A stretch of DNA of 64,000 bases from Anaerolineae bacterium (GCA_022824465.1 JAJDZV010000002.1:20192-84191), one strand, 5' to 3'. Numbered from the stretch's first letter, positions 26,264-61,726 are shown. Notes: generated by a model from the sequence alone, not told the origin. A program made the numbers and translations.

Positions 26264-26265
26264 CG

Positions 26266-27264: not shown

Positions 27265-27337
27265 AAGAGCGTCTCGAGCCGGGTGGATTGGGTCTGCCCG
27301 GTAGAACGGACCCAATCCACTGCGCTGTCAAATCAGC

Positions 27338-29239: not shown

Positions 29240-29354
29240 GAGAAGACTCCTAAGTCTAACTATCGAAAGGCAATCAATGAAAGAAGCCAAGCTACGATGG
29301 CGCCAGTTCATGAATCAACTATAGCTTCTTTCATAGATTCCGGCTATTATAGCA

Positions 29355-33907: not shown

Positions 33908-33925
33908 GGGCTGATAGTAACGAAA

Positions 33926-33960
33926 TGACCCTCGGGTGCATCTTAACCACTCGAGGGTCA
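33926..33960 (+). terminator. Hairpin in the SBP-permease spacer
   Basis: TGACCCTCG-17 nt-CGAGGGTCA, 19 nt after the SBP stop at 33907. Confidence 0.4.
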
Positions 33961-34023
33961 CAAATTCATCTCTGACACCCGTTATCCTGCCCCGCAGTAG
34001 TGGGAACAGACTAGGATCGAATT

Positions 34024-34944: not shown

Positions 34945-34947
34945 GCC

Positions 34948-35775
34948 GTGAAGCGCCGGTCGACGGTTACAACCTTCTTTCTCTACCTGGTGGGCACGCT
35001 CTATGGGCTGGCTGTTCTTTTCCCCATCGTCTGGATGCTGATGCTGGCCTTGAAGAGCCAACTGGACGCATTCGCCAAGCCGCCGCTGCTCATCTTCCAG
35101 CCGACCCTGGAGCACTTTATCGCCATATTCCAGGACCGCGAGTTCCTCGAATCCATTGCCAACAGCGTCATCATCTCGACCGGCTCGGTGGTCTTCGCCA
35201 TGGTTTTCGCCATCCCCGCCACCTTCGCGCTGACCATCATGCAGGGGCGCGTCCGGCGCAACGCCTTGCTCACCATCCTGCTGATACGCACGGCGCCGGG
35301 CATGATCTACCTTCTGCCATATTTCGTGGTTTATTCGCGGCTGGGCATGCTTGATACCCACGCCGCGCTGATCATCATCTATCTCATATTCAACGTGCCG
35401 TTGATCATCTGGACGCTGATGCCGGTCTGGAGCGCTGTGCCGCGCGAGCTGCGGGAATCCGGCATGATTGACGGCGCTAGTTTGTGGCAGATTCTGTTCT
35501 GGATTGAGTTGCCGCTGGTGCGCGTCGGCATCATCGCCTCGGGGATCGTGGCTTTCATTTTCGCCTGGAACGAATTCCTCTTCGCGCTGGTCATCAGCGC
35601 CAACGATTCGGTCACGCTGGCTGTCGCCATCACGCGCTATATGGGTTATGAAGGCACGGAATGGGGCAAGCTGGCCGCGGCTGCCGCCGTCATGATGCTG
35701 CCGGGCATCATCTTCGGTTTCTTGATTCAGCGCTATATGGTCGCCGGGCTGACTGCTGGCGCTATCAAGGGCTAG
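34948..35775 (+). CDS. Carbohydrate ABC transporter permease (MalG/UgpE-like)
   Basis: EAA loop ESGMIDGASLWQILFWIELPLV, C-terminal AIKG. Confidence 0.85.
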   Translation: MKRRSTVTTFFLYLVGTLYGLAVLFPIVWMLMLALKSQLDAFAKPPLLIFQPTLEHFIAIFQDREFLESIANSVIISTGSVVFAMVFAIPATFALTIMQGRVRRNALLTILLIRTAPGMIYLLPYFVVYSRLGMLDTHAALIIIYLIFNVPLIIWTLMPVWSAVPRELRESGMIDGASLWQILFWIELPLVRVGIIASGIVAFIFAWNEFLFALVISANDSVTLAVAITRYMGYEGTEWGKLAAAAAVMMLPGIIFGFLIQRYMVAGLTAGAIKG

Positions 35776-35826
35776 CGGTGAGGCGTTGCCTGTGGAACGA
35801 TTTTCCCAAGCCGGAAAGCGAGAATT

Positions 35827-41827: not shown

Positions 41828-42994
41828 TCAGCCCTCTTGCAGACCCGCCGGCGCCAATTCGCCAATCGAGCGCTCCAGCTCGCTGGCCTCGCTCAAGGGC
41901 TCGTCGAGCGGCTCCGGATTCGCCGTCGGCGGCAGGGGCGTGTCGTATTCGTAATCAGGGTCGCGCTTCTGCCGGTCCCAGACCATGCGCATTTCTTTCC
42001 AGGCGCCGACCAGCGTGCGTGGCGCCGGCATGTCGTATTTGATCTCGTCGTAGAGCGTCGCCAGGTTGTAGCAGGGAACGCCGGCGTACATGTGGTGTTC
42101 GATATGCCAATTCATGCGCCAGTATAGAAACGAAAAGAGCGGGTTCAGCTTGACCGAGCGGGTATTCTTGCGGAAGTCGCGGCTGTGGTTGCGCAAGCCG
42201 CAATGCTGCGTCAAGCCGACAAAATAGGACAGCCAATTGGCGATGAAGACCGCCAGCGAAAAGATTAGGGGCAGCACCCAATAGCCGCTGAGGCTGCCGA
42301 TGATCAAGACGCCGCCATGAAAGGCGAGCAGCAGGCGCGACCACAGGATAGATTTGCGATGCTGCTCCGGTTGGTCGCGGTGCAGGGCGTTCAGCCATTC
42401 GTTGATCGGCGCGCGCTCGTCCGATGGCACTAGCCCAAATGCGCCCAAGGCGGTGATGATCACGGTGGAGATGAGTCCGCCCTTGCCGAAAGTGCGTCCG
42501 CGCTGCGTCAGCAAGTTCACGGTGAAAAGCTGCAGCATGAAGCTGGAAGCCAGCGATGGCTCGAGTGGCAGCAGATTCTCGCGATCCCCCTCCGGGTGCA
42601 GGGTGTAGCGATGGTGATAAGTGTGGCTGCTGGCGTAATCGAAGGGGTCCCACCAGCCAATCAGACTGAAGAGATAAAGAAAGAGTTTGTTGAGCCGCTT
42701 GGTCTTGAAGACGGTGCCATGACCCAGTTCATGCGGCGCTGTGCCGGTGAAGAAACTGGTTACTGTGCCATGCAGGAAGAGGGCGATCAACATTGCCAGC
42801 CACAGCTCTTCCCACCAGAAAGCGAAGACGAGCGCGCCAGTGAGGATGAAGAGCCCGAAGTGCCCGCTGGCCTGGAACCAGCCCTGGGCGTCGCTGCGGC
42901 GAGACAGCTCGCGCAGTACGCCCGGCTTCATCGGGCAGCGATACCAGTCGACGCGGAGGGACTTGCGGACTTCGGACAGTTCTTGGTATGCCAT
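41828..42994 (-). CDS. Membrane fatty-acid-desaturase-superfamily protein (paralogue 1)
   Basis: His boxes HELGH, HTYHH and HIEHHMY. Starts with MAYQELSEVRKSLRVDWYRC, parallel to paralogue 2. The track start at 43108 is probably too long. Confidence 0.85.
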   Translation of the reverse strand: MAYQELSEVRKSLRVDWYRCPMKPGVLRELSRRSDAQGWFQASGHFGLFILTGALVFAFWWEELWLAMLIALFLHGTVTSFFTGTAPHELGHGTVFKTKRLNKLFLYLFSLIGWWDPFDYASSHTYHHRYTLHPEGDRENLLPLEPSLASSFMLQLFTVNLLTQRGRTFGKGGLISTVIITALGAFGLVPSDERAPINEWLNALHRDQPEQHRKSILWSRLLLAFHGGVLIIGSLSGYWVLPLIFSLAVFIANWLSYFVGLTQHCGLRNHSRDFRKNTRSVKLNPLFSFLYWRMNWHIEHHMYAGVPCYNLATLYDEIKYDMPAPRTLVGAWKEMRMVWDRQKRDPDYEYDTPLPPTANPEPLDEPLSEASELERSIGELAPAGLQEG

Positions 42995-43120
42995 ATCATG
43001 CCACCTCTTGCTCGCTGATACGAAAGACGGCGCTTTGCTTACATAGTGCGGGACCGATTGATTGCGCGCCCGCCTGCAAAGGGAAGATGGCTTGTCGCCG
43101 CTCAGCACCCGCGGCAGGAG

Positions 43121-44266
43121 CTACGCGCGCTCTTGCAGCCCCGCCGGCGCCAACTCGCCGATAGAGCCCTCCAGCGCCGAATCTACCCGGTCTTCGCGCG
43201 CGTGCATAGCCGTTGCAGGCAGGGGCGTATCGAATTGATACTCGGGGTCGATCTTCTGTCGGCGCCAGGTTTCGCGCATTTCTTTCCAGGCGCCGATTAG
43301 CGTGCGTGGCTCCGGCATATCCTGGGCGACTTCCTTATGCAGCTTTCCCAAGTTGTAGCAGGGCACGCCGGCGAACATATGGTGCTCAATATGCCAGCCC
43401 ATCCGCCAATACAGAAAGTCGAAGAGCGGGTTGAGCTTCATCGAGCGCGTATTTTTGCGAAAGTCGGAGGTGTGATCACGCAAGCCGCAGTGTTGTGGCA
43501 AGCCGACGAAGTAACCAAGCCAATTGCCAATGAAGACCGAGGCCGAGAGTATCAAAGGCAGGACCCAAACGCCTGTGATAATGGCGATAAGCAGGACCGA
43601 GCCATGGAAAAGCAGCAGGATACGCGACCACAAGATTGAGTTATGATGCTCCTCTGGTTGGTCAAGATGCAGCGCCCGCAGCCACTCCTTGTCGGGCGGC
43701 AGGCGGCCGACCGCGCCAAGTGCCGTCATTATCACGGTGGAGATCAATCCGCCGCGATGGATGCTGCGGCCGGGCGGGGTCAACAGATTGATCGTGAACA
43801 TCTGCAGCATGAATGTTGATGCCAGCGAAGGCTCAATCGGCAGCAGCACCTCGCGGTCTCCCTCCGGATGCAAGGTGTAGCGATGATGGTAGGTGTGGCT
43901 GCTGGCGTAGTCAAAGTGGTCCCACCAGCCGATTAAGCTGAACAGATACATGAAAAACTTGTTGAGCCATTTCGTCTTGAAGACCGTGCCATGCCCTAAT
44001 TCATGAGGCGCGACGCCGCGGAAGAACGAAGTCACTGTGCCGTGACAAAACAGCGCGAGTAGCATGGCCAGCCAAAGCCCATGCGACCAAAAGTAGAAGA
44101 CCAGCGCGCCAGTGAGGATGAAGAGCGCGAGGTGCCCGCCAGCCTGGAACCAAGCTTGGGCATCGCTGCGCCGAGACAGCTCGCGCAGCAAACCAGGGCG
44201 CGTCTTGCAGCGATACCAATCAACGCGGAGGGTCTTGCGGACTTCGGAAAGCTCTTGGTAAGTCAT
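43121..44266 (-). CDS. Membrane fatty-acid-desaturase-superfamily protein (paralogue 2)
   Basis: His boxes HELGH, HTYHH and HIEHHMF. Collinear with, and roughly three-quarters identical by eye to, the downstream paralogue. Confidence 0.85.
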   Translation of the reverse strand: MTYQELSEVRKTLRVDWYRCKTRPGLLRELSRRSDAQAWFQAGGHLALFILTGALVFYFWSHGLWLAMLLALFCHGTVTSFFRGVAPHELGHGTVFKTKWLNKFFMYLFSLIGWWDHFDYASSHTYHHRYTLHPEGDREVLLPIEPSLASTFMLQMFTINLLTPPGRSIHRGGLISTVIMTALGAVGRLPPDKEWLRALHLDQPEEHHNSILWSRILLLFHGSVLLIAIITGVWVLPLILSASVFIGNWLGYFVGLPQHCGLRDHTSDFRKNTRSMKLNPLFDFLYWRMGWHIEHHMFAGVPCYNLGKLHKEVAQDMPEPRTLIGAWKEMRETWRRQKIDPEYQFDTPLPATAMHAREDRVDSALEGSIGELAPAGLQERA

Positions 44267-44426: not shown

Positions 44427-45473
44427 CTACTCGAGGGGGACGCCCAACTCATTCAAGACTGCAAGCGCCTCGTCCAGGTTGACGCGGTCGCGGGCATTCT
44501 TGATCGAGCGTTGCAGCATGAAGATCGCGTCTTTGTCGCCCGCGCGCGCCAAATCAATCGCCTCGGCGAAACCCTTGTCGCTATAGCTCATGTCGCGCTC
44601 AACGACCCGGTTGTCGAATTTCCTCCAATAGAATTTGAGGTCTTCATGCCGCCAATGCAGGTAGATGTCATCCCAACTGAGCTGGCTGGGTCCATGCGGC
44701 TCAAGCATGTGCTCGGCGATATTGTCGCCGACCAGCATATAGCGATTGTCCAGCGAGAGACGCAGCTTGTCATCCGTATAGTTTGGCAGCGCCCGGTGTA
44801 TGGTCAAAGCCGGGAAGAAGAGGGCGTCGCCCGCTTCGTAATCGGCGGTATGCCAAACCGGGTCGATCTCGTCATGCGCGGTCTCGTCGACGATCAAGCC
44901 GCCGGCGCCCAGGGAGAAGTGATGATCGAGCACGCGGTTGACCTTATGCGAACGTGGGATGACCGCCAAGCCGCCCAGCTCGATCGGGCAGTCGCCGATG
45001 GGCGCCCAGCAGGTGATATTGTCGTAACTGCCTTGAAAGTGCACGAAGTCTTGATGCGTAGGCGTGGTGTGCTCGGTGTATTTAGGGAACCAGATGCGGG
45101 CAACCTTTTGGGGATGGGGCATGACGGGCGCGCCAGTCATCTTTTCCACGATGTCAAGATACTCTGGCCAGTGGGCAGAGCGGTGGAAGTTTTCGATCTT
45201 GTAAACCTCGGCATAACCGGCGCTGTATTCGTTATCGCCTTCGGTGTAGCGCATGTTGATATCGGCGATGCCATCCATCGGGTCGGTGTCGGCGACCAGC
45301 CAGCCGACTTGCTGGATTACGCTCATCATTTCGCGGCGGAGTTCCCAGAGTTTGTCTGGGCTCACCAGTCGCTTGAAAAAGAGATAGCCGTCGTCGGCGA
45401 TGCGCCGCTGTAATTCGGCCGCGTCGTCCACGGCATCGTTGGACACGCGCAGGTATTTTAGCTCATTGGACAT
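44427..45473 (-). CDS. Phytanoyl-CoA dioxygenase (PhyH) family oxygenase with C-terminal extension
   Basis: DDGYLFFKRL, PTHQDFVHF (HxD), LTIHRALPN. The opposite-strand ORF 44358-45413 is an Arg/Ala/Val-rich shadow. Confidence 0.75.
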   Translation of the reverse strand: MSNELKYLRVSNDAVDDAAELQRRIADDGYLFFKRLVSPDKLWELRREMMSVIQQVGWLVADTDPMDGIADINMRYTEGDNEYSAGYAEVYKIENFHRSAHWPEYLDIVEKMTGAPVMPHPQKVARIWFPKYTEHTTPTHQDFVHFQGSYDNITCWAPIGDCPIELGGLAVIPRSHKVNRVLDHHFSLGAGGLIVDETAHDEIDPVWHTADYEAGDALFFPALTIHRALPNYTDDKLRLSLDNRYMLVGDNIAEHMLEPHGPSQLSWDDIYLHWRHEDLKFYWRKFDNRVVERDMSYSDKGFAEAIDLARAGDKDAIFMLQRSIKNARDRVNLDEALAVLNELGVPLE

Positions 45474-45638: not shown

Positions 45639-46982
45639 ATGTTCCGTAGATATATTTTTGCATTTGTCTTGCTGCTGCTTTTGAGTTCGTTTGCCGGCAT
45701 GGCAATGGCTCAAGACGCGGTCAGCATCACCATTCGTTGTATCGCGAGCCCGCCGGAAGAAGACTGGCGCTGCAACAATTTCGCTACAGTCGAAGAGCAG
45801 GTCGAAGCCGAGTTGGGCATCGAAATTGAGTTGAATCTGATTCAAGACAATGCCAGTTGGGGCGATTACAAGAATGAATTCGTCCTGGCGTCGGAAGCCG
45901 GCGAAGCGCCGGATATCGTCTTGTCCGGTCACGAGGATATTGGCGCCTGGGCGCCGGCCGGATTTATCATCCCGCTGGATGATATGATTCCCATGCACAG
46001 CGAGTTTGAAGATATCGTGCCCTCGCTTTGGGATTCGCATGGTTACGCGGGTCAGATTTGGGGCATCCCGCAAGATGCCGAAGCGCGTCCGATCTTCTAC
46101 AGCAAGCTGCTGCTGCGCGACCTGGGCTGGAGCGAAGAAGAGATCGAGTCTCTACCCGAGCGCGTCGCCGCTGGCGAGTGGACCTTCGCCGATATGATGG
46201 CTACGGCTGAAGCAGCGATTGACGAGGGCATCGTCGACAGCGGCAACGGCTGGTGGCACCGCCCGAGCAATGGTCCGGACTTCCTGTACTACTACTATGG
46301 GCATGGCGGCGAAGTCCTCGATATGGATGGCAACCTGGTTGTCGATCGTGACGCTCTGGTCGCGACCTACGAGCTCTTGGGCGGCGCTGTCGCCTCCGGC
46401 GTGCTGCGCTCAGATGTCATTGGGCTCGACTGGAACGAGGTCTGGCATCCGACGGTGGCGCAAGCTGATACGGTGCTCTTCGCCGCTGGCGGCACCTGGA
46501 ATTGGCCAAACTGGGCGATCAACTATGTCGCCGACAAGGGTGGCGATGAGTTTCTCTTCGAGAACATCGGTTTGACGCTGATTCCAGCGATGGCGACCGG
46601 CAACGCCATCACGCTGACGCACCCGCTGACCTACATGATCAGCAGCGGCAGCGAGCATCCTGATGTGGCGCTGGAGTTGATCGCGGCGATCACCACGCCC
46701 GAGCATAACAACAAGCACGCCATTGACAGCTTCCATCTGGGAATTCTCAACGCGCAATTGGAGTCCGAGGCGTATGCCAACAACCGTTTGCTGAGCAGCG
46801 CGCACTATATGCTGGATCACACGACGGCATTGCCCAACCATCCTGGTTGGAACGCCTGGTCGGGTGCCTACTTCCTGGGCATCCAGGCCGTAGAAACGGG
46901 CGATGCGGATGCGGCCGGCGCGGCTGATATCGCAATCGCGCAGATGCAGAATGAATTGGGAGACGGCATCATCGTCCGCTAA
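45639..46982 (+). CDS. ABC transporter substrate-binding protein (CUT1/UgpB-like)
   Basis: Signal peptide MFRRYIFAFVLLLLLSSFAGMAMAQ. First gene of an SBP-permease-permease-ATPase-GDPD operon. Confidence 0.85.
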   Translation: MFRRYIFAFVLLLLLSSFAGMAMAQDAVSITIRCIASPPEEDWRCNNFATVEEQVEAELGIEIELNLIQDNASWGDYKNEFVLASEAGEAPDIVLSGHEDIGAWAPAGFIIPLDDMIPMHSEFEDIVPSLWDSHGYAGQIWGIPQDAEARPIFYSKLLLRDLGWSEEEIESLPERVAAGEWTFADMMATAEAAIDEGIVDSGNGWWHRPSNGPDFLYYYYGHGGEVLDMDGNLVVDRDALVATYELLGGAVASGVLRSDVIGLDWNEVWHPTVAQADTVLFAAGGTWNWPNWAINYVADKGGDEFLFENIGLTLIPAMATGNAITLTHPLTYMISSGSEHPDVALELIAAITTPEHNNKHAIDSFHLGILNAQLESEAYANNRLLSSAHYMLDHTTALPNHPGWNAWSGAYFLGIQAVETGDADAAGAADIAIAQMQNELGDGIIVR

Positions 46983-47121: not shown

Positions 47122-48099
47122 GTGACTATGTCAATCCTCAAGCCCAAAGGCGGTCAAAGCCAGAGCAGCCGCAATGCCCTGCGATCTTATCTGGGCGCTT
47201 ACGGCTTTATGGCGCCGGCTGGCGTCCTCGTCATCGTATTCTTTTTGATCCCGGTGGCCATCGTTCTCTACTTGAGCGTCACTAACCTGGCCAGCTCAAA
47301 CTTCACGTCAGACCTCGCCAAGATGGAGTTCGTTGGATTAAGGAATTACGAAACGCTTCTCAACGATCAATTCGCGCGGAAGATATTCTTCAATACGATA
47401 TTTTATGTTTTGTTCACGCTTTCCATCTTCAATGTCTCGGCGGCGCTGATTGTATCGTTGCTGACGACCCATATTGATCGCAATGCCGGTTTCCTCTTCC
47501 GCGCATTGTGGATCCTGCCCCGCATCACTTCGCCGGTAGTCTACATTCTGATTTGGAAGCGGATGATGGCGGAGGCGCCCTTCGGCATCATCAATCAATT
47601 TAACGAATTCTTGGGGCAGCCCACCTACAATTACGTCGCCACCAATCCCTGGGTATTCGTGATTGTTGTGAACGGATTCATCGGAATCTCCTTTGGCATG
47701 ATCATCTTTACCTCCGCGATTGAATCCATCCCCAAGGATTTGCTTAACGCATCGCTGGTCGACGGTTCGTCAAAGCTGCAGCGCATCCGCTATGTCATTC
47801 TGCCCTTGATCCGCTGGCCCCTGCTTTTTGTCGTCACCTATCAGACCTTGTCCCTGCTGACCTCGTTTGTTGAGATTCAATTGCTGACCGATGGCGGACC
47901 TGGTTTGTATCGCACCGAGGTCTGGTCCTTAACGGCATTTCATCGCGCCCTGTCCAATTATTTCGGCAATGCCCAATGGGGGTACGGCTCGGCCTTTGCC
48001 GTTCTCCTGGTTTTGATTGGCGTTGTGCTCGCGGTGGTATACATGCGAGTTTTTCGCTTTGACGAGTTGATTGCGGAACCTCGCGTGGAGGTACTGTAA
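47122..48099 (+). CDS. Sugar ABC transporter permease (MalF/UgpA-like)
   Basis: EAA loop NASLVDGSSKLQRIRYVILPLIRWP, six TM helices. Confidence 0.85.
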   Translation: MTMSILKPKGGQSQSSRNALRSYLGAYGFMAPAGVLVIVFFLIPVAIVLYLSVTNLASSNFTSDLAKMEFVGLRNYETLLNDQFARKIFFNTIFYVLFTLSIFNVSAALIVSLLTTHIDRNAGFLFRALWILPRITSPVVYILIWKRMMAEAPFGIINQFNEFLGQPTYNYVATNPWVFVIVVNGFIGISFGMIIFTSAIESIPKDLLNASLVDGSSKLQRIRYVILPLIRWPLLFVVTYQTLSLLTSFVEIQLLTDGGPGLYRTEVWSLTAFHRALSNYFGNAQWGYGSAFAVLLVLIGVVLAVVYMRVFRFDELIAEPRVEVL

Positions 48100-49673
48100 T
48101 GGCGGGCGCTGGTTCTATCGAGATGGGCAAGATCAAAGAGGCCCCGGTTGCGCCCCCGATTCGGCGCGACTTGCTAGAGGCGCTGCAGACCGGCGCGATC
48201 AGCATGGCGGTCATGCTCATTGCCGCCATTTTCTTCAGCCGCATCATCGGTCCACTTTTCACGCTGGGCAATGTCGAAGAGACCGTTACCGACGTATTGT
48301 CTCGCCTTCTGCTATTGGTGATGCCGTATGTCGCCTATATTGCCGCCGCCAGCGTCGCCCGCCGCTATACATATATCGACACGGCGCGGGCGCTTGGTTT
48401 GGCTTTCACTACAACCTTGGCGCTTTTCAGCGTTGTATCGGCTGGACATTATGTTTCCGATACGGGAGTTTTCGCGCCTCGGCCCGCGTTGCAGATGACG
48501 TTGGTCCAGTCCGATGCCGGCATTCGCGTTGAGTCCGTAGTCGCTGGCGGCGCGGCCGACCTGGCCGGCATCCAGGCCGGCGATGTCATCACGGCGATAC
48601 GGCGAGACCCGGTCGATCTGCAAGCCTTTAACCGACGCGTGAGCCAGTCTTTGGAAGGCGATCCCTTGCGCCTGCGCTTTATCCGGGGCGACGAAGAATT
48701 GCAGGAGACGGTTCGGATCGTGCTGTTATCGGGCAAGCATTTCAACGCGCTCTTGCCCGGCTTGGCATTCGCGCTGGCATTCACCGCCATCATCGTTTTC
48801 CTGCCGGGTCAGTGGGCGCCCTATATCGCGCTTGTCGGCTTGTTGTCGCCCCTGCTGATAGGCTATTTCTGGGTCATCGTCGCCACGTTCTCCTTCCGCA
48901 CCGAAGGCTTGGTTCCGCTGGACGGAAATGACAACTTTGGCGGTTTGACCTTGAAGAACTGGGAGTCGATCTTCGTCGGCAATATTGCGGGCTTGGAATT
49001 CAATATCGTTCCTATCTTCATGACGTCCCTGGCGATCGCCGTCGTGATGACCTTCATTGTGTTGCTGGTATCATCCATGGCGGGTTATGCCTTGTCGCGC
49101 ATGAATTTTCCCGGCCGGCGTTTCTTCTTGTCTTTCACGCTGATTCTGCATGGCTTCCCGGCAATCACCTTGCTGATCCCGATCTTCTTTGTCCTCCTGC
49201 GGCTAGGGGATATCCCCTTCATCGGCGAGCTTATCGGCTTCAATACCATCGGCGGCATTGCTCTGGTCATGGTCGCGTTTCAGCTTCCGCTCGGCGTCTG
49301 GTTGATGAAGGGGTTTTTCGACAATATCCCTTGGGACATGGAGCGTTCCGCCTTGATCGATGGCGCTTCCCGCTGGCGCACGTATTGGGAGATCCTCCTT
49401 CCTCAAATCCGCCCGGGCTTGCTGGCTTTGGGAATCTTCGCATTCATCGGCGGCTGGAACGCCTACATCATTCCAGCGACGTATTCGATAGGTTCCGGCG
49501 TGAGCAACCTGCCAGTTTTCCTGGAAGAGCTGATTGACGCGACAGCGCCGGTGGACTGGAATCAAGTGGCGGCGGTCGGTCTGTTTCAGTTGATTCCCAT
49601 CTTCATCTTTTTCATCTTCGCCCAGGAGTATCTGCTGAATATCTATGCCGGCGGTGCCAAAGGGACTTCGTAG
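48099..49673 (+). CDS. MalG/UgpE-type ABC permease with an N-terminal 4-TM + PDZ extension
   Basis: The C-terminal ~290 aa form a normal CUT1 permease (EAA loop RSALIDGASRWRTYWEILLPQIRP). The N-terminal ~230 aa add TM helices and a PDZ-like segment (GIRVESVVAGGAADLAGIQAGDVITAIRRDPV...LRLRFIRGDEELQETVRIV). TAATG overlap with the upstream permease gene. Confidence 0.8.
   Translation: MAGAGSIEMGKIKEAPVAPPIRRDLLEALQTGAISMAVMLIAAIFFSRIIGPLFTLGNVEETVTDVLSRLLLLVMPYVAYIAAASVARRYTYIDTARALGLAFTTTLALFSVVSAGHYVSDTGVFAPRPALQMTLVQSDAGIRVESVVAGGAADLAGIQAGDVITAIRRDPVDLQAFNRRVSQSLEGDPLRLRFIRGDEELQETVRIVLLSGKHFNALLPGLAFALAFTAIIVFLPGQWAPYIALVGLLSPLLIGYFWVIVATFSFRTEGLVPLDGNDNFGGLTLKNWESIFVGNIAGLEFNIVPIFMTSLAIAVVMTFIVLLVSSMAGYALSRMNFPGRRFFLSFTLILHGFPAITLLIPIFFVLLRLGDIPFIGELIGFNTIGGIALVMVAFQLPLGVWLMKGFFDNIPWDMERSALIDGASRWRTYWEILLPQIRPGLLALGIFAFIGGWNAYIIPATYSIGSGVSNLPVFLEELIDATAPVDWNQVAAVGLFQLIPIFIFFIFAQEYLLNIYAGGAKGTS
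48489..48725 (+). other. PDZ-domain-encoding segment inside the permease gene
   Basis: aa ~131-209 of the 524-aa ORF. The pattern G.rV..V..GG.A..AGIq.GDvI..i....v......f...v......l.l...R....... matches bacterial PDZ domains (DegS/RseP-like) by eye. Confidence 0.65.
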
Positions 49674-49745: not shown

Positions 49746-49790
49746 CGATTATTGATTCTGGAGTTTCTACTAGCGCGGAAGGCGCGGCGC

Positions 49791-50873
49791 ATGAGAATTA
49801 CGATTGACAATCTCACAAAGAAGTTCGGCGATGTGGTTGGGGTGGAAGACCTGACGCTGCATATTGATGATGGCGAATTTGTGGCTTTCCTCGGTCCCTC
49901 CGGCTGTGGCAAGACGACTACGCTGCTGACCCTGGCCGGCATATACAAACCGACCGAGGGCCAGATCAGGTTCGGCGAGCGGGTCGTCAACCAGGTGCAG
50001 CCGAAAGATCGCAATATCGGCATGGTCTTTCAAAGTTATGCGCTTTACCCGCACATGACTGTCTTCCAAAACATCGCCTATCCGCTAAAGCTGAAGAAGG
50101 TCGCCAAGAATATCCAGCGCGAGCGCGTACAGCAAGTGGCTAATGTGATGGGCATCGGCAACCTGCTGGATCGCCGGCCCGGACAGCTTTCCGGCGGGCA
50201 GCAGCAGCGGGTGGCTTTAGGGCGCGCGCTGGTGAAAGAGCCGGATGTTCTGCTCTTTGACGAGCCGCTTTCCAATCTGGACGCGCGGCTGCGTTTGACC
50301 ATGCGCGGCGAAATCAAGCACTTGCAGAAGGACCTGGGCATCACATCCATTTATGTCACCCACGATCAAGTGGAAGCGATGACCATGGCTGACCGCATCG
50401 CAGTGATGAACGGCGGTCACTTGCAGGCTTTTGACGCGCCCGATGAGTTGTACAGCCGCCCCAAAACGCAGTTTGTCGCCGGCTTCGTCGGCAACCCGCC
50501 GATGAACTTCGTGTCGGTTGAAGTATCGCGCTCAAATGGGCGCTTCATCGCCGAGACCGATCGATTGCGTCTTGAAGTCGGTGGGGATCGCGGCGGTGCA
50601 GCGGCTGGCTTCGCTGGCGCAGTCGTCATGGGCATCCGTCCGGAAGATATTCAAATCAGCGGCGATGGCGATATCGCTGGCGAGATATACGTCGTGGAGC
50701 CGCTCGGACGTGAAGACCTGATCGATGTGCGCGTGGGACCACATAGCTTCCTTTTGCTGGCGGGCGCGGAAACGCAGTATCGAGCGGGGGAAGAGGTCAA
50801 ACTCGCGTTTGACATGGATAAGGTTCAGTTCTTTGATCCGCAGACCGAGAAATCTATCCTCTGGCAGCAATAG
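49791..50873 (+). CDS. Sugar/glycerol-3-phosphate-type ABC transporter ATP-binding protein (MalK/UgpC/MsiK-like)
   Basis: GGAAGG SD sits 8 nt before the ATG at 49791. Walker A GPSGCGKTT, signature LSGGQQQRVALGRAL, Walker B LLFDEPLSNLD, C-terminal TOBE-like regulatory domain. Confidence 0.9.
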   Translation: MRITIDNLTKKFGDVVGVEDLTLHIDDGEFVAFLGPSGCGKTTTLLTLAGIYKPTEGQIRFGERVVNQVQPKDRNIGMVFQSYALYPHMTVFQNIAYPLKLKKVAKNIQRERVQQVANVMGIGNLLDRRPGQLSGGQQQRVALGRALVKEPDVLLFDEPLSNLDARLRLTMRGEIKHLQKDLGITSIYVTHDQVEAMTMADRIAVMNGGHLQAFDAPDELYSRPKTQFVAGFVGNPPMNFVSVEVSRSNGRFIAETDRLRLEVGGDRGGAAAGFAGAVVMGIRPEDIQISGDGDIAGEIYVVEPLGREDLIDVRVGPHSFLLLAGAETQYRAGEEVKLAFDMDKVQFFDPQTEKSILWQQ

Positions 50874-50892: not shown

Positions 50893-52482
50893 ATGCTCGA
50901 CGGCGCGCTGGAAGGGCTGAATCGCCGCATCGAATCCCGAAGCGATCATGCGCTGGCCTTGCGCCACGCCCCAATCATCAATTTTGACGCGAGAGAACCC
51001 TTCTTTCCCTCCGTCGCTGGCTACACCGTCTTCCGCAGGTCGGCGCGATCGCCTTCTTTCCCGCGCGATATCCAACTGGGCGACGGCGCCGCATTCGCCA
51101 TCGAATATGCCATCTGGTGGGACTGGGATATACAGCATCTCTATGAACTGGAACATGCCTGGGTCTATATCGATGACCGGGGCGAGGTTTTGGATGTCGA
51201 AGCGAGCTGGCATGGCATATACAACCGAATGCTCGACGGCGCGGGGCAACTTCGCCTGCATGGCGGTCGTCCGCTTCTCTATTCCGAGCCCGGCAAACAT
51301 GCTTTCGCGCCATCGCCTGATTGGCTGCTGCGGCGCAGAATGAGGACCGACGTCAGTTGCGGCCGCCGCGCCGGCTTGATGGGGGTGCATGTCACGCCGC
51401 TCTTCGCCGGCATCATCAGCCAGCGCAAGCCGCTAGAGAACCGCCTCGTCCATACCTGGCTTGAACGCCGGCAGTTCGAGCCCAGCTACGATTTTTCAAA
51501 CACCTTTGACCTGCGCGACGCCATATTTGTCCCCTGGCCGCATCTCGTCAACTGGATACCGGCGCGCGTAGCCTGGTGGACGGGGAGGCTGCGCGCGACC
51601 ATCCCGCCGCATGAGAGGCGCGTCCTGCGCATCGCTCATCGGGGCGCATCGGCATACGCCAGGGAAAACTCGCCGGAATCGCTGCGTGCTGCGGCCGAGC
51701 TGGGCGCCGATATGGTTGAGATCGATATCCATACCTCCGCCGATGACATCCCGATCGTCACCCACGACAGCAGCTTGAAGCGCCTCTACGGCATCGACGG
51801 CAATATCTCGGATTATGACTGGGAGAGCCTTCGCGCTTTGACCGCGGCAAAAGGCAGCATCATGGACTTCGATGAGGCGCTCGCGCTCTGCAAGGCGCTG
51901 GGTTTGGGCTTGTATCTTGACATCAAGCGGCTCAGCAGTCAGGCGGCGCAATCCATATTCGCCTCGGTCGATGCGCGGCACTATGGCAAGCAAGTGATCT
52001 TCGGCTCGTTCAGACCGGATTACCTGGCGGATATCAAAGCCGCTCGGCCAGAGGCTGAGACATCGATATTGTTCAACGCGCTTGACATTGACCCGGTGAA
52101 GCTGGCAGGGGCGGTTCGGGCGGATTATGTGCATCCCTGCTGGGAATGGCGCGCGGAGCAGCCGCATCGTTTGCTCACGCCGGAGTGGATCGCTGCGTTG
52201 CGACAAGCCGATGTGGGCATCGTCTGCTGGCATGAAGAGCGCCCGTCTGAAATCGCGGCTTTGAAAGCATTGGGCGTCGACGCCATCTGCTCGGATAAAC
52301 CAGAATTGCTGAACGAGGTCGCTGCCGTTCTGCCCCACCCCCCGGCCCCATCGCGCCATCTGGCCACGCAGGACACAACGGGAGTTAGAGGGCGCCGAGG
52401 CTCATATTATGATTCGACACGCCTCCAATGTAATTCGCTGTCTTTCTTACGGAATGGTATATGCCCGAGTATTAAAGTATAG
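50893..52482 (+). CDS. Two-domain protein: unknown N-terminal domain + glycerophosphodiester phosphodiesterase (GDPD) domain
   Basis: The C-terminal half has IAHRGASAYARENSPESLRAAAELGADMVEIDIHTSADDIPIVTHD (GDPD HR..E.D motifs). The N-terminal ~280 aa carry no motif I recognise. The start was moved to the ATG at 50893, because the track start at 50725 overlaps the ATPase gene. Confidence 0.75.
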   Translation: MLDGALEGLNRRIESRSDHALALRHAPIINFDAREPFFPSVAGYTVFRRSARSPSFPRDIQLGDGAAFAIEYAIWWDWDIQHLYELEHAWVYIDDRGEVLDVEASWHGIYNRMLDGAGQLRLHGGRPLLYSEPGKHAFAPSPDWLLRRRMRTDVSCGRRAGLMGVHVTPLFAGIISQRKPLENRLVHTWLERRQFEPSYDFSNTFDLRDAIFVPWPHLVNWIPARVAWWTGRLRATIPPHERRVLRIAHRGASAYARENSPESLRAAAELGADMVEIDIHTSADDIPIVTHDSSLKRLYGIDGNISDYDWESLRALTAAKGSIMDFDEALALCKALGLGLYLDIKRLSSQAAQSIFASVDARHYGKQVIFGSFRPDYLADIKAARPEAETSILFNALDIDPVKLAGAVRADYVHPCWEWRAEQPHRLLTPEWIAALRQADVGIVCWHEERPSEIAALKALGVDAICSDKPELLNEVAAVLPHPPAPSRHLATQDTTGVRGRRGSYYDSTRLQCNSLSFLRNGICPSIKV

Positions 52483-54772: not shown

Positions 54773-54961
54773 GTCGTTCTGCTCCTTTGCGCTATAGATG
54801 TAAGAATTTAATTGTGTTTACAAAGGCCGGCATGTCGTTATAATAGTGCGGCGCTGCGAACAGCAAAAAGGAAAGTGTAGTCGCCAGTAGAGGCCGCTGC
54901 AAGCGCCTTGGCGGAAACGCGCGCAAAATCTCGTTAAGCTGAACTCTTGGGAGAATCAACC

Positions 54962-56251
54962 ATGAAACGAAGTAAAGTTTTGCTCATACTTTTGTCCATT
55001 GCCGTCCTGGTGTTGCCGACGCTCGCCGTGGCCGCGCAGGATCAGACCGAGGTTCGCATTTCCTGGTGGGGCTCGCAGAACCGTCACGACCGCACCATCG
55101 CGGCGATTGAACTCTACGAAGAACTCAACCCCGATATCGACATCGTCTACGAATTCCAGGGTTGGGGCGATCATTGGACCAAGCTGTCGACGCAGGCGGC
55201 CGGCGGCGAACTGCCGGACATCATGCAGCACGATTACGCCCGCATTGAAGAGTGGGTGGCCAATGGCTTGTTGCTGCCGCTCGATGGCTATATCGAAAGC
55301 GGCGCCATCGACGCCATGAGTATCGCCGATGCTTCCTTGGCGGGTGGCATGGTGGACGGGCAGCTCTACGGCATCAACCTGGGCAACAACTCCGAGGTGT
55401 TCACCCTGGATACCGATGCCTTTGCCGCCGCTGGACTTGAACTGCCGCCGCTGGACTGGACCTGGACGCAATTCGAAGACATCGCAACCCAGATTCAAGA
55501 ATCGCTGGGCATTCACGGCATCGGCGTTCTGACCAGCGATCAGCTTTGGAAATCCCAGTATATGGGCTGCTGCGACCAATGGGCTTACGCCGCCGATGGC
55601 ATGTCCCTCGGCTACGAAGACGATCAGCCGCTGATCGACTATTACAATATGCTGCTGCGTCTGCAAGATAATGGCGGCATGCAGAGCTACGAAGATTCGG
55701 TCGCGCGCGGCGATCAAGGCGTGGAAGCGCAACTGATCGTCAGCCAGGAAGCGGCGATGGCTTATCACTGGAGCAACCAGATCGTGGCGGTCTGGAACGC
55801 GGCCGGCGCCGAGCGCAACTTCGTGATGTATCCGGTCCCGCGGCCCGAAGGCGGTCAATCGCAGAATTATATCAAGCCGTCGATGTTCTTCTCGGTCACT
55901 TCCCAAGCGGACCAGCCGGACGAGGCGGCAGCTTTCATCAACTGGTTCGTCAATTCCGTCGAAGCCAACGAAATCCTGGAAGCCGAGCGCGGCGTGCCGA
56001 TTTCCTCGGTCGTGCGCGATGCCTTGCTGCCCAATCTCGGCGCGGCGCAAGCTGAGATGTTCAACTATCTTGGCATCATCGAGATGGACAACAGCCCAAT
56101 CCGCCCGGCTGACCCGGCGGCGCACTCGGATGTGATCAGCAATGTCTTTGGACCAGAGTTCGTTGAGCCGGTCATGTATGGCATGATCAGCCCGGAAGAC
56201 GCGGCGCCCTTCCTGCGCGAAGAAGCCAACCGCATTCTGGGAGCGCAGTAG
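54962..56251 (+). CDS. ABC transporter substrate-binding protein (CUT1 sugar type)
   Basis: GGGAGAA SD sits 6 nt before the ATG at 54962. Signal peptide MKRSKVLLILLSIAVLVLPTLAVAAQ. Confidence 0.85.
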   Translation: MKRSKVLLILLSIAVLVLPTLAVAAQDQTEVRISWWGSQNRHDRTIAAIELYEELNPDIDIVYEFQGWGDHWTKLSTQAAGGELPDIMQHDYARIEEWVANGLLLPLDGYIESGAIDAMSIADASLAGGMVDGQLYGINLGNNSEVFTLDTDAFAAAGLELPPLDWTWTQFEDIATQIQESLGIHGIGVLTSDQLWKSQYMGCCDQWAYAADGMSLGYEDDQPLIDYYNMLLRLQDNGGMQSYEDSVARGDQGVEAQLIVSQEAAMAYHWSNQIVAVWNAAGAERNFVMYPVPRPEGGQSQNYIKPSMFFSVTSQADQPDEAAAFINWFVNSVEANEILEAERGVPISSVVRDALLPNLGAAQAEMFNYLGIIEMDNSPIRPADPAAHSDVISNVFGPEFVEPVMYGMISPEDAAPFLREEANRILGAQ

Positions 56252-56276
56252 GCAAGCAACAACTGACTGTGACAGG

Positions 56277-56305
56277 TGGGCGGGCCATGGCTCGCCCCCA
56301 ACAGA
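56277..56305 (+). repeat. REP-core hairpin
   Basis: GTGGGCGGGCCATGGCTCGCCCCCAACAG, 26 nt after the SBP stop codon and before the permease genes. Confidence 0.7.
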
Positions 56306-56383
56306 ATACTGATTTGTGGGCGAGCAGGGCCGCGTCCAAGGGTATCCGTTGCGATAGAGCCAAACGAGTGAAGCGAAAAGCGG

Positions 56384-57316
56384 ATGGCAGCCGCCACGCT
56401 AAGTAAAGCCAAGCGCCGCAAGCAATCCAACTTCGGACAGGACAACCTCGTCGGCTACCTATTCATCGGTCCCTGGCTGGCGGCCTTCCTGCTTTTCACC
56501 TTTATACCGATCAGCGTCTCTCTGCTGCTGTCCTTCACCGATTACAACGTGCTGGCGAACGCCGGCGAGTTCATCGGCTTGGACAACTTCCAGCGCATGT
56601 TCTTTGAGGACCGGCGATATTGGCGCTCGGTCAACGCCACGCTGAAATACGTCGTGTTTTCCGTGCCGCTGCGGCTGCTCTTCGCCCTGGCGGTCGCCAT
56701 GCTGCTGAACACCTATCGCCGCGGCGTTGGCGTCTATCGCGCGGCTTTCTACGCGCCTTCGATCATCGGCGGCAGCATCGCGGTGGCGGTCATGTGGCGC
56801 GAGATTTTCGGCAACGACGGCTTGGTCAATTTCACGCTGAATGTTCTTGGCATCCAGGGTCCCAACTGGCTGGGCAGACCGGAAACCGCCATCTGGACGC
56901 TGATCATCCTGGCTGCCTGGCAATTCGGCTCGCCGATGCTGATCTTCCTGGCGGGATTAAAGAATATTCCAAAACATCTGTATGAATCGGCGGAGATCGA
57001 TGGCGCCAACGCCTGGCAGCGATTCCTGCGCATCACCTTGCCTATGCTGACGCCGATCATCTTCTTCAATCTCATCATGCAGCTCATATCCGGCTTCATG
57101 GTCTTCACCCAGGCTTTCATCGTTACCCAGGGCCGGCCCCTGGATACCACGCTATTCTATGCGCTGTATGTCTATCGCCGCGCCTTCGAGCAGAACGAGA
57201 TGGGATACGCCTCGGCTATGGCTTGGGTCATGCTCATGGTCATCGCCCTTTTGACGGCGCTGGTCTTTCGCTCGTCAAGCTACTGGGTGCATTACGAAGC
57301 GGGCGAGGGGGCTTAG
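56384..57316 (+). CDS. Sugar ABC transporter permease (MalF/UgpA-like)
   Basis: EAA loop ESAEIDGANAWQRFLRITLPMLTP. Confidence 0.85.
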   Translation: MAAATLSKAKRRKQSNFGQDNLVGYLFIGPWLAAFLLFTFIPISVSLLLSFTDYNVLANAGEFIGLDNFQRMFFEDRRYWRSVNATLKYVVFSVPLRLLFALAVAMLLNTYRRGVGVYRAAFYAPSIIGGSIAVAVMWREIFGNDGLVNFTLNVLGIQGPNWLGRPETAIWTLIILAAWQFGSPMLIFLAGLKNIPKHLYESAEIDGANAWQRFLRITLPMLTPIIFFNLIMQLISGFMVFTQAFIVTQGRPLDTTLFYALYVYRRAFEQNEMGYASAMAWVMLMVIALLTALVFRSSSYWVHYEAGEGA

Positions 57317-57319
57317 TCG

Positions 57320-58231
57320 ATGGCTCGCATTGAAGCCAAAGCGCCAGCCGGGCTCAGCGCGCCGCGGGTTATCCGCCCGGCTGTGCCTTGGTATCAGCAT
57401 CAGCTGGCGCGCTCGGTATTCTATCACGCGGTGGTGGGCGTGACTTGTTTCTTCATGCTCTATCCGATTCTGTGGCTGGTCGGCAGTTCCTTCAAGCCGC
57501 CCGACGAAATCTGGACCAATCAGACCGCGATCATCCCGAAGGACTTTTATCCGCAGAATTATCCCAATGGCTGGGCTGGTTTCGGCGGCATTAGCTTCGC
57601 GACCTTCTATCGCAATTCGCTTTTCTACGCCACCTTCGGCACCATCCTCAGCGTCAGCGCTTCGGCTGTGGTGGCTTACGGTTTCGCCCGCCTGCGCTTC
57701 CGGGGCCGGCGGATCTGGTTCGCTATCATGCTGGTTACGCTCATGCTGCCCACGCAAGTGCAGATCATCCCACAGTATATCGTCTTCAAGCAGTTGGGCT
57801 GGCTGAATACCTTTTATCCGCTGCTTCTGCCGCGGATAGGCGGCTCGGCATTTTTCATCTTCATGATCATCCAATTCATCCGCAGCATCCCGGTCGATCT
57901 GGACGAAGCCGCCATGATCGATGGCGCTAACAAATTTGGCATCTTCCTGCGCGTCATCCTGCCCCAGCTCACCCCGGCTATCATCACGGCCGCCATCTTT
58001 TCCTTCTACTGGACCTGGGATGAATTTCTGGTCCCGCTGATTTATCTGAACAGCCCGGAACTCTATCTGGTCTCGCTGGCGCTGCGCACTTTTTCCGATC
58101 CCTCGGGCCAGACCGATTGGGGCGCTATCTTCGCCATGTCGGCTTTATCCCTGTTGCCGGTCTTTGTCATCTTCATTTCCTTCCAACGCTACCTGGTCGA
58201 AGGCATCTCCACGACTGGTTTGAAGGGCTGA
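57320..58231 (+). CDS. Carbohydrate ABC transporter permease (MalG/UgpE-like)
   Basis: EAA loop EAAMIDGANKFGIFLRVILPQLTP, C-terminal GLKG. Confidence 0.85.
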   Translation: MARIEAKAPAGLSAPRVIRPAVPWYQHQLARSVFYHAVVGVTCFFMLYPILWLVGSSFKPPDEIWTNQTAIIPKDFYPQNYPNGWAGFGGISFATFYRNSLFYATFGTILSVSASAVVAYGFARLRFRGRRIWFAIMLVTLMLPTQVQIIPQYIVFKQLGWLNTFYPLLLPRIGGSAFFIFMIIQFIRSIPVDLDEAAMIDGANKFGIFLRVILPQLTPAIITAAIFSFYWTWDEFLVPLIYLNSPELYLVSLALRTFSDPSGQTDWGAIFAMSALSLLPVFVIFISFQRYLVEGISTTGLKG

Positions 58232-59479: not shown

Positions 59480-61726
59480 ATGACACAAACGCAGCGTTCC
59501 AAACGCTTTGAGTTGCTCGCCAAGCGCGACATCAACAAAGAGACTTATGTCGAGCCTTGGCCCGAAGCCGGCTTGATCGTCGCCGACAGCCCTTACGATC
59601 CGCAGCCGAGCCTCAGCATCACTGCGGGGACGGTCGTCGAAATGGATGGCGTCGCCCAGGCGGACTTTGACGCCCTCGACCGTTTCATCGTCTCTCACGC
59701 GCTTGATCTCGCCGTCGCCGACGAGGCAATGGCAATTCCATCACAAGAATACGCGCGCATGTTGGCCGACATCAATGTGCCGCGAGAAGCTATCGCCCGC
59801 CTGATCGCCGGCTGCACGCCAGCCAAACTGACCGACATCATGCGGCATCTCAATGTGCTGGAAATGATGATGGGCTTGACGAAGATGCGCATTCGCCGTC
59901 AGCCAGCCAATCAAGCGCATGTGACCAACTGGCGCGAGCATCCAGCCCTGCTGGCGGCTGACGCGGCTGAGGCGGCATTGCGCGGTTTCGCCGAGGTCGA
60001 GACGACCGTGCGAGTGGCGCGATTCGCCCCCTTGAATGCGCTAGCCATCCTGGTTGGCGCGCAGACGGGAAGAGGCGGCGTACTGACGCAGTGCTCGGTC
60101 GAAGAGGCGCTGGGCTTGCGCCTGGCGATGAAAGGACTGACGAGCTACGCCGAGACACTCTCGGTTTACGGCACGGAGAGAACTTTTGTCGATGGCGATG
60201 ATACGCCCTGGTCAAAGGCTTTTCTGGCTTCAGCCTACGCCTCGCGCGGCGTGAAAATCCGCTTCACCTCCGGCACAGGCTCGGAAGCGCTTATGGGACG
60301 CGCTGAGAAGAAATCGATGCTCTATCTGGAAGCGCGCTGCCTGCTGGTGGTCAAAGGCGCGGGCAGCCAAGGCGTGCAGAATGGCTCGATTTCTTGCATC
60401 GCTCTGCCGGAAGCCTTGCCCGGCGGCGTGCGGGCCGTGCTGGCGGAGAACTTGCTGGCGGCGATGCTCGGCTTGGAAGTGGCGGCCGGCAACGATGCGC
60501 TTGCTTCGCATTCGAGCATCCGCAAGACAGCGAAGCTCATGCTGCAATTCATCCCCGGCGCCGACTTCATCTTCAGCGGCTACAGCGCCATACCCAAGCG
60601 CGACAACCTCTTCGGCGGCGGCAACTTCGATGCCGAAGACTTTGACGATTACAACACCTTGCAGCGCGATATGCAGATTGACGGCGGCGTGCAGCCCATC
60701 AGCGAGGACGAGGCGCTGAACATCCGCCAAATGGCTGCGCGCGCCATTCAAGCGGTCTATCGCGAACTGGACCTGCCGCCGATCACGGACGAGGAGGTGG
60801 AGGCGGCGACGGTCGCCCATAGCAGCGACGATATGCCGGAGCGGGATATCGTGCCCGATCTGGAAGCGGCTGACGCCTTTATGGCGAGCGACCGGGACTT
60901 CGTCGCCGTGATTCAAGCCTTGCAAGTTAGCGGTTTCGCCGATGTCGCCGATAATATCCTCGAGATGGGTCGGCAGCGCATCGCCGCGGATTATTTGCAG
61001 CCCTCGGCGATATTCGATGCCGACTTCAAAGTGCGGAGCGCCATCAACGACGCGAACGATTATACTGGACCCGGCAGTGGGTACCGCCCGGCCGGGCAGC
61101 GCTGGGCGGCCATGCAAGGCATCCCGCAAGCCAAGTCGCCGGAAGGCTTCGTCCAGCCACATAGCGGCGCGCCGCTTTCGCGCTTGGTCGAGATTGGTCC
61201 CGCGAGCAAAGGCCTTCAGAAGGAGGTCCTGCTCGCCGTCGGTCCAGCCTTTGGGCGCGGGCTGACGACGACTATCGGCGGCTTGGCGCATGAAGACGTG
61301 TTAAAAGCTATTCTGTCCGGCATCGCAGGCGAGGGCATGATCGCGCGGATCCTGCGTGTCTATCATTCTTCCGATTGCGCCGCTATCGGCTACGTCGGCG
61401 CGCGCTTGAGCGGCAGCGGCATCGGCATCGGCTTGCAATCGCGGGGCACCGCCGTCATCCATCAGAAAGACCTGGCGCCGCTGAATAATCTCGAACTCTT
61501 TCCCCAATCGCCCAGCCTGACGCTTGCGACCTACGAAGCCATCGGCCGCAACGCCGCTCGTTATGCGCTTGGCTTGGCGACTGTGCCGGTGGCGGTCAAG
61601 ATCGACAATGGCGCGCGCCTGCGCTTGATCGTCAAGACAGCGCTGCTGCACCGCCGCGAGACCGACGAAGTCGATCCTGACAAGCGGCCGCAAGCATTGC
61701 GCTTCGATTGGGAGCCGGATCTATGA
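59480..61726 (+). CDS. pduCD: Adenosylcobalamin-dependent diol/glycerol dehydratase, large (alpha) and medium (beta) subunits fused
   Basis: aa 1-~555 are collinear with PduC/PddA/DhaB1 (RSKRFELLAKR, NQAHVTN, ETTVRVARFAPLNA, TQCSVEEA, YAETLSVYGTE, DDTPWSKAFLASAYASRG, GVQNGSISC, AGND, FSGYSAIPKRDNLFGG, EDFDDYN, PPITDEEVEAAT). aa ~581-748 are collinear with the PduD/PddB core (AVGPAFG, LSGSGIGIGLQSRGTAVIHQKDLAPLNNLELFPQSP, TYEAIGRNAARYA). Confidence 0.9.
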   Translation: MTQTQRSKRFELLAKRDINKETYVEPWPEAGLIVADSPYDPQPSLSITAGTVVEMDGVAQADFDALDRFIVSHALDLAVADEAMAIPSQEYARMLADINVPREAIARLIAGCTPAKLTDIMRHLNVLEMMMGLTKMRIRRQPANQAHVTNWREHPALLAADAAEAALRGFAEVETTVRVARFAPLNALAILVGAQTGRGGVLTQCSVEEALGLRLAMKGLTSYAETLSVYGTERTFVDGDDTPWSKAFLASAYASRGVKIRFTSGTGSEALMGRAEKKSMLYLEARCLLVVKGAGSQGVQNGSISCIALPEALPGGVRAVLAENLLAAMLGLEVAAGNDALASHSSIRKTAKLMLQFIPGADFIFSGYSAIPKRDNLFGGGNFDAEDFDDYNTLQRDMQIDGGVQPISEDEALNIRQMAARAIQAVYRELDLPPITDEEVEAATVAHSSDDMPERDIVPDLEAADAFMASDRDFVAVIQALQVSGFADVADNILEMGRQRIAADYLQPSAIFDADFKVRSAINDANDYTGPGSGYRPAGQRWAAMQGIPQAKSPEGFVQPHSGAPLSRLVEIGPASKGLQKEVLLAVGPAFGRGLTTTIGGLAHEDVLKAILSGIAGEGMIARILRVYHSSDCAAIGYVGARLSGSGIGIGLQSRGTAVIHQKDLAPLNNLELFPQSPSLTLATYEAIGRNAARYALGLATVPVAVKIDNGARLRLIVKTALLHRRETDEVDPDKRPQALRFDWEPDL

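Follow-up and report, generated by a model that had tools for sequence, protein, structure and literature searches.

The window analyzed here is a stretch of 64,000 nucleotides (nt) from an Anaerolineae bacterium (GCA_022824465.1, JAJDZV010000002.1:20192-84191), and the gene of concern lies on its + strand at 48099-49673. It encodes a predicted 524 amino acid (aa) membrane subunit of an ABC importer that carries, ahead of a permease core of the MalG/UgpE type, four additional transmembrane (TM) helices and a PDZ domain. The frame is open throughout when translated directly, and the ten TM helices of the product are supported by hydropathy and AlphaFold. The ATG at 48099 shares 1 nt with the TAA stop codon of the permease gene immediately upstream (gtaATGg), and a Shine-Dalgarno-like GGAGG is read directly at 48087-48091 (+ strand), 7 nt 5' of that ATG; the overlap and the GGAGG together suggest a start that is translationally coupled to the upstream gene, not a read-through artefact. 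The top 120 homologs are colinear with the protein (59-84% identity), and apart from three shorter entries they are 516-527 aa long.

The permease core and the N-terminal module

The original prediction, made from this sequence alone, had divided the protein into an ordinary permease with a normal EAA loop (the C-terminal ~290 aa) and an extra N-terminal part with four TM helices and a PDZ-like segment. This two-part architecture is borne out by Pfam, hydropathy and AlphaFold. The six-helix MalG-type core occupies aa 240-524 (48816-49670, + strand); Pfam finds BPD_transp_1 at aa 325-511 (55.6 bits, cut-off 26.4), sequence searches of the PDB align SugB with aa 248-522 and MalG with aa 260-522, the NCBIfam MalG model spans aa 266-522, and Foldseek against the PDB matches the core to the MalG and SugB structures. 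Core TM1 (aa 240-264) aligns with TM1 of SugB and MalG and is followed by five further helices; since the alignment begins at the first TM helix of those two proteins, the ~240 N-terminal residues are extra. The EAA loop (EAA-x3-G-x9-I-x-LP), which lies between TM4 and TM5 of the core, is normal by direct reading (ERSALIDGASRWRTYWEILLP, aa 415-435, nt 49341-49403) and its motif is invariant in the family, and the C-terminal tail, AGGAKGTS, is MalG-like. In these respects the protein is like its counterparts in E. coli MalFGK2, mycobacterial LpqY-SugABC and E. coli UgpBAEC-UgpQ, from which it differs in the ~240 residues that hold the four TM helices and the PDZ domain. It misses the NCBIfam equivalog cut-offs of both MalG (98 bits versus 261) and UgpE (54.8 bits versus 297), and is a member of the superfamily without being an ortholog of either.

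Hydropathy and AlphaFold agree on the helices. Three of the extra helices (a-c, at aa 34-56, 68-88 and 99-120; 48198-48458, + strand) precede the PDZ domain, and helix d (aa 216-236; 48744-48806, + strand) follows it and is joined to core TM1 by a conserved tight cytoplasmic turn (P236-G237, P241-Y242); the four extra helices had been predicted with coordinates that were right to within a few residues. AlphaFold2, given an alignment of 81 sequences, yields a confident model of the N-terminal module, with a predicted local distance difference test score (pLDDT) of ~85-95 for aa 21-250, and reproduces the four helices and the PDZ order of strands and helices. The first three helices (modeled as aa 21-55, 63-90 and 95-120) reach a pLDDT of ~90, and the PDZ segment (aa 121-215) 85-92.

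The PDZ domain (aa ~128-210; 48480-48728, + strand) is of the circularly permuted HtrA type. Three Pfam PDZ models exceed their gathering scores at aa 133-205, PDZ_2 with 32.5 bits (cut-off 27; 32.5-37.2 bits over the Pfam scans), PDZ_6 with 28.0 and PDZ with 25.9. A family profile, derived from 14 members by way of their N-terminal regions and searched against the PDB, matches both PDZ1 and PDZ2 of DegQ at E = 5e-18, and also DegP, DegS, HhoA and the PDZ tandem of the RseP homolog aq_1964. Foldseek against the PDB superimposes the model on DegQ (3stj, root mean square deviation (rmsd) 1.5 Å) and HhoA (5t69, rmsd 1.2 Å), and it also finds DegS with bound peptides. The residues typical of the fold, G141, G151, G161-D162, I164 and the R196-x-G-E hairpin, are retained. 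Profile and structure prediction agree on what had been a PDZ-like segment at nt 48489-48725, a placement that was at most a few residues off. Nearest to the domain in sequence (32-41% identity) are secreted multi-PDZ proteins with 3-10 PDZ_2 repeats and a signal peptide ending AAQ[DE], here assigned to Chloroflexota solely by that signal-peptide motif. They differ from the permease in being soluble or anchored repeats with a canonical [FY]LG[VI] loop and no transporter part, and judged by sequence similarity they are the likely evolutionary source of its PDZ domain.

The original prediction had also placed the PDZ domain outside the membrane, and three independent lines of argument make an extracytoplasmic location a strong inference. 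First, the loop between helices a and b, which would be outside, is acidic with a conserved VEETVT at aa 59-64, and the b-c loop, which would be inside, is basic (means per sequence, n = 81, of 0.06 K+R and 2.4 D+E for a-b, and of 2.1 K+R for b-c), as the positive-inside rule requires. Second, the core is homologous to MalG and SugB, whose N-termini are inside, and the helices that lie between the PDZ domain and the first periplasmic core loop, d and core TM1, are even in number. Third, its nearest relatives occur in secreted proteins with signal peptides. The domain would be held within ~5-8 residues of the bilayer at either end, and the permutation of HtrA-type PDZ domains should bring both the chain ends and the carboxylate-binding loop next to these two short membrane linkers.

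The domain shares its permuted fold and its location outside the cell with the PDZ domains of DegS, DegP/DegQ (PDZ1), HhoA and the RseP tandem, and the RseP PDZ domains also lie between TM helices. It differs from them in several ways. No protease domain accompanies it (the 524 aa contain no HExxH motif, and Pfam finds no Peptidase_M50 match); its carboxylate-binding loop is a degenerate A-L-Q-M without the glycine (aa 129-132; 48483-48494, + strand), which in the alignments stands gap-free opposite Y-L-G-V of the secreted multi-PDZ proteins; and Arg168-Arg169 (48600-48605, + strand), a pair invariant in alignments that include 74 sequences from the loci described below, takes the place of the customary "nG" turn ahead of helix alpha-B. 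R191, R196, E199, E200 and Q202 are likewise invariant in a divergent 14-sequence alignment, R193 is nearly so, and R191, E199, E200 and Q202 sit on the last two PDZ strands. Such family-specific invariant residues argue that the domain is specialized and not decaying, and their positions, together with the variability of helix alpha-B, indicate that the conserved surface is distinct from the groove in which peptides are classically bound; this surface may be turned toward the VEETVT loop, the binding protein of the importer or a ligand. Binding of peptides by this domain, whether C-terminal or internal, is putative.

The operon and the distribution of the family

The gene lies in an operon with the order substrate-binding protein (SBP), permease, permease, ATPase, glycerophosphodiester phosphodiesterase (GDPD), which is that of ugpBAECQ; as in the MalG, SugB and UgpE systems, an SBP and two permeases are combined with a MalK/UgpC-type ATPase, and as in ugpBAECQ the GDPD gene is downstream. 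The SBP gene (45639-46982, + strand) encodes a 447 aa CUT1/MalE-like protein (Pfam SBP_bac_1/SBP_bac_8), and the partner permease (47122-48099, + strand; 325 aa, Pfam BPD_transp_1) is of the MalF/UgpA type and of ordinary size, its best NCBIfam match being UgpA at 77.7 bits, below the cut-off of 335. The ATPase (49752-50873, + strand; 373 aa, Pfam ABC_tran, OB_MalK and TOBE_2) is of the UgpC/MalK type with an OB/TOBE regulatory domain, and its 413 bits against NCBIfam UgpC fall just under the cut-off of 432. The last gene (50893-52482, + strand) encodes a probable cytoplasmic GDPD; its start is inferred, as the mechanical open reading frame (ORF) already opens at 50725, within the ATPase gene. 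The protein has its GDPD domain at the C-terminal end (Pfam E = 5e-30; NCBIfam glycerophosphodiester phosphodiesterase 80 bits, cut-off 264), the N-terminal ~245 aa have no Pfam or NCBIfam match, and there is no signal peptide. No component of the operon reaches an NCBIfam Ugp equivalog level, and the SBP, which differs from that of the Ugp system, has no UgpB match. Its relatives in sequence and fold searches are generic CUT1 oligosaccharide-type proteins at 16-20% identity, and its Foldseek matches are T. maritima MalE1-3, GacH and the SQ-glycerol SBP. From the ugpBAECQ-like order with its GDPD gene one may loosely infer that the substrate is a glycerophosphodiester or a related sugar or polyol phosphate.

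A scan of 185,579 species-representative genomes with the motif GD[VLI]I[TI][AG][IV]RR[DA] returned 73 loci, all in species-level Chloroflexota metagenome-assembled genomes (MAGs) labeled Anaerolineae, Aggregatilineales, Phototrophicaceae, Anaerolineaceae or Thermoflexus. The SBP gene was found at 70 of these loci, the partner permease and the PDZ permease at 72 each and the ATPase at 71, in constant order wherever present. A GDPD gene lies downstream at 55 of the 73, three times on the opposite strand, and clustering of the ORFs at all 73 loci found no further conserved partner beyond the four transporter genes and GDPD. The neighbors at distant loci vary and include GntR/UTRA or LacI regulators, a xylose-isomerase-like TIM barrel protein and an MFS transporter. 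SBP, permease and PDZ permease genes of this operon also occur on a 5.3-kb contig binned as Spirillospora, Actinomycetota (DATGNY010000468.1, locus L074), where the SBP is 72% identical to that of the window and a GntR/UTRA regulator lies upstream, as it does at loci L046 and L067; this contig is most likely misbinned Chloroflexota. The names of several isolates suggest marine or sponge sources. One Aggregatilineales MAG (JBBSNT01) has two paralogous operons, each with SBP, permease, PDZ permease, ATPase and GDPD genes (L062 and L063), in which the C-termini of the SBPs are identical (NELGDQVVIK) and the PDZ sequences are different.

A word-indexed search finds more than 1,200 relatives, and an exhaustive HMMER search of 1.84 billion representatives with aa 1-240 found ~20 clusters that cover the TM part, all other matches being to the PDZ domain alone. 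Among the best 150 matches a permease core is present in members of the family alone. No stand-alone gene for the module was found, the short entries that were read being contig-end fragments or frameshifted gene calls. In comparisons with the window sequence the add-on has a dN/dS of 0.20-0.25 and the core one of 0.045, rough values because dS, at ~1.0-1.5, is near saturation; by this measure purifying selection maintains the add-on, with more freedom to change than the core has. In line with the original prediction, full-text literature searches turned up no paper that describes a PDZ domain within a subunit of a binding-protein-dependent importer, yet public databases already contain such proteins by the hundred. 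Their entries carry precomputed PDZ_2 and BPD_transp_1 matches under the bare name "ABC transporter permease subunit" (at JGI some are named "inositol-phosphate transport system permease"), so this is an overlooked architecture and not an unseen sequence. The family is a taxonomically narrow group of type I importer permeases that bear an accessory domain outside the membrane.

Possible roles of the PDZ domain

The SBP carries a type I signal peptide (AMA|QD) and a conserved Cys pair, lacks a lipobox and ends in the conserved sequence NELGDGIIVR. A type I signal peptide (AxA|Q[DE]) without a lipobox is found at every locus where the N-terminus is readable, and the C-terminal tail is invariant in length, with the conserved sequence NE[LMV]GDx[IV]x[VIY][RKQ]. 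In the AlphaFold model of the SBP (pLDDT 94) tail residues 444-446 (IIV) form a beta strand (pLDDT ~95) packed on the body of the protein, and this alone accounts for the conservation of the tail.

As a tentative reading that may well prove wrong, we favor an accessory, non-canonical role for the PDZ domain in docking or positioning the SBP. In one Chloroflexota lineage, the MalG/UgpE-type subunit of a type I importer acquired an N-terminal four-TM module that carries its HtrA-type PDZ domain at the outer surface of the membrane, and this domain would offer the cognate SBP an accessory surface, contacting it through the non-canonical patch R168/R169, R191 and E199/E200/Q202 with the near-invariant R193 and not by classical capture of a free C-terminus. 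The SBP is the only conserved extracytoplasmic protein at the locus, since there is no other broadly conserved neighbor beyond the transporter genes and GDPD. A more specific version seems rather doubtful, namely that the re-tooled surface with its RR/R-x-R patch recruits, selects or holds the soluble SBP, or senses an anionic ligand or head group, as a counterpart of MalF P2 that evolved from the secreted multi-PDZ proteins of Chloroflexota.

Two known systems support a docking role by analogy. The first is the P2 loop of MalF, which in isolation binds MalE with a Kd of 7-22 µM and remains bound throughout the transport cycle (PMC6906923). Both it and the PDZ domain are extracytoplasmic globular domains between TM helices of an importer permease with extra N-terminal helices. 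P2, however, is Ig-like, belongs to the MalF-type subunit and lies between core helices (TM3 and TM4), whereas the PDZ domain is on the MalG-type subunit, between helices c and d of an N-terminal extension, and its binding of the SBP is putative. The second is the "claw" (DUF3394) of the TAXI-TRAP transporter VcGluQM of V. cholerae, which is part of an extension with three extra TM helices and whose contact with the SBP was predicted by ColabFold (PMC11574862). Here too a beta-rich periplasmic domain lies between two helices of a terminal TM extension in an SBP-dependent transporter, but the transporter is a secondary one, the extension is C-terminal, and the window protein has no DUF3394 match even at E <= 10.

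Several observations weigh against a docking role for the domain. The carboxylate-binding loop has the family consensus [SAT]L[QE][MF], with Q, E, A or N at the place of the x-Phi-G-Phi glycine in every one of the 74 aligned sequences, and the helix that forms the wall of the classical groove, alpha-B, varies. It is just as possible that the conserved basic patch packs internally against the acidic VEETVT loop, a reading that the high pLDDT over the whole N-terminal module fits. The AlphaFold confidence for the core is low (pLDDT 40-60), probably because the core is nearly invariant in the 81-sequence alignment. Finally, the four other SBPs of the window share the signal type of this one, and the three cognate MalG-type permeases that were scanned (275-303 aa) are without a PDZ domain, which argues that a docking aid or tether is no general need in this organism.

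An unlikely alternative is that the domain is a gate, filter or sensor, which sterically controls the SBP-docking surface or the translocation path, or whose Arg cluster binds an anionic ligand or lipid head group and so regulates transport. The PDZ tandem of RseP is a size filter, and the family profile matches the tandem of its homolog aq_1964, which likewise lies between TM helices. The patch of invariant residues (R168/R169, R191, R196, E199/E200 and Q202, with R193 nearly so) stands on an otherwise acidic domain that very short linkers would keep at the membrane surface, and the GDPD gene ties the operon to phosphodiester metabolism. The argument is circumstantial throughout, however, and type I importers are usually regulated at the ATPase, which here retains its OB/TOBE domain.

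It is quite unlikely that the module is purely structural or organizational, stabilizing the permease heterodimer, driving oligomerization or clustering, or anchoring the transporter to an envelope protein with no direct part in the transport cycle. Such a role would suit an add-on that evolves ~5x faster than the core (dN/dS ~0.2 versus 0.045), that is predicted as a single rigid unit (pLDDT ~90), and whose nearest PDZ relatives are secreted proteins of a scaffolding type, apparently from the same phylum. It is less easily reconciled with the lack of a conserved extra partner gene near the operon, and a role specific to the transporter is indicated instead by the strict 1:1 tie to a single transporter family and by the invariance of residues on the surface.

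Classical capture, in which the groove would bind the free tail of the SBP (GDG-I-x-V-R) and so tether a soluble, non-lipidated protein, is very unlikely. It had been raised in the original prediction, and some features recommend it: the absence of a lipobox wherever the N-terminus can be read, a tail that is conserved, of fixed length and the sole conserved extracytoplasmic C-terminus in the operon, and the binding of C-termini by the HtrA-type PDZ domains of DegS and DegP. The details of both partners speak against it, however. The loop glycine is lost in 74 of 74 sequences; the SBP ends in R, K or Q, not in a hydrophobic residue; its residues 444-446 are modeled as a packed strand and not as a free end; and, by the topology of HtrA-type PDZ domains, the carboxylate site beside the membrane linkers should be sterically restricted. 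No covariation of the PDZ loop residue with the SBP terminal residue was seen, in a test that was underpowered. The idea that the domain tethers an SBP left unanchored in a monoderm cell is further weakened by the four other unanchored SBPs of the window, since the three cognate MalG-type permeases that were scanned have no PDZ domain. The last possibility, that the extension is a mis-fused upstream ORF or a frameshift product or that the PDZ match is due to chance, has a probability close to nil and is refuted by the unbroken frame with its own Shine-Dalgarno sequence and coupled start, by the colinear homologs in 73 species, by three Pfam PDZ models above cut-off, a profile E of 5e-18 and a fold rmsd of 1.2-1.5 Å, and by the nature of the short "stand-alone" matches (contig-end fragments or frameshifted gene calls), with nothing found in its favor; the gene is real.

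Few ABC importer permeases bear accessory extracytoplasmic domains, and those domains are informative; MalF P2 has shaped the current model of an SBP that stays engaged with its transporter. If the docking role is correct, a second, unrelated fold would do a P2-like job on the other permease subunit, and SBP recruitment modules would have arisen more than once; one PDZ domain on short linkers would also make a compact, separable system in which docking affinity could be compared with transport. The bacterial contexts of PDZ domains would be widened beyond proteases, with an example of a rebuilt carboxylate-binding loop, and a conserved, unannotated feature is flagged in at least 73 species-level MAGs of Chloroflexota. 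If the domain is merely structural, it is a taxonomically narrow curiosity.

Related observations and other features of the window

An invariant Cys pair, R-C-x8-W-R-C, lies at aa 33-45 of the SBP in the first loop after strand 1; its sequence suggests a disulfide, which would fit an oxidizing extracytoplasmic site. All five SBPs of the window (7138-8487, 27338-29311 on the - strand, 32588-33907, 45639-46982 and 54947-56251) are without a lipobox cysteine, and their signal peptides end PLAQE, VTAQD, VAAQD, VSAQE and AMAQD. The same A-Q-[DE] end is found in many unrelated secreted multi-PDZ proteins (P0133, P0139, P0144 and others), and this shared A/x-A-Q-[DE] looks like a cleavage or sorting motif typical of the lineage. 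SBPs without a lipobox raise the question of how Chloroflexota retain soluble binding proteins.

Repeats of three multi-PDZ proteins (P0133, P0135 and P0137) give partial matches to positions ~105-149 of DUF3394; the whole-protein scores are 27-38 bits against a cut-off of 28.2, and no single stretch passes. By this similarity the TAXI-TRAP claw may contain a PDZ-like element, which is unmentioned in the paper on the claw (PMC11574862).

Directly upstream of the operon is a tandem pair of paralogous desaturases of the fatty-acid type (41828-43108 and 43121-44266, both on the - strand), followed by a PhyH-family dioxygenase (44427-45473, - strand); these genes are conserved in this position in the closest clade only. 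The window as a whole is densely packed with operons for SBP-dependent ABC importers, of which there are at least five, including those at 5977-10521, 23450-29311 (- strand), 32588-37233 and 54947-58231, and a sulfatase gene lies at 35827-37233. This density of importers and the sulfatase fit a heterotroph specialized in scavenging organic compounds. The large and medium subunits of diol/glycerol dehydratases are normally separate polypeptides; a 748-aa ORF at 59480-61726 (+ strand) fuses the two (Dehydratase_LU, 878 bits, and Dehydratase_MU).

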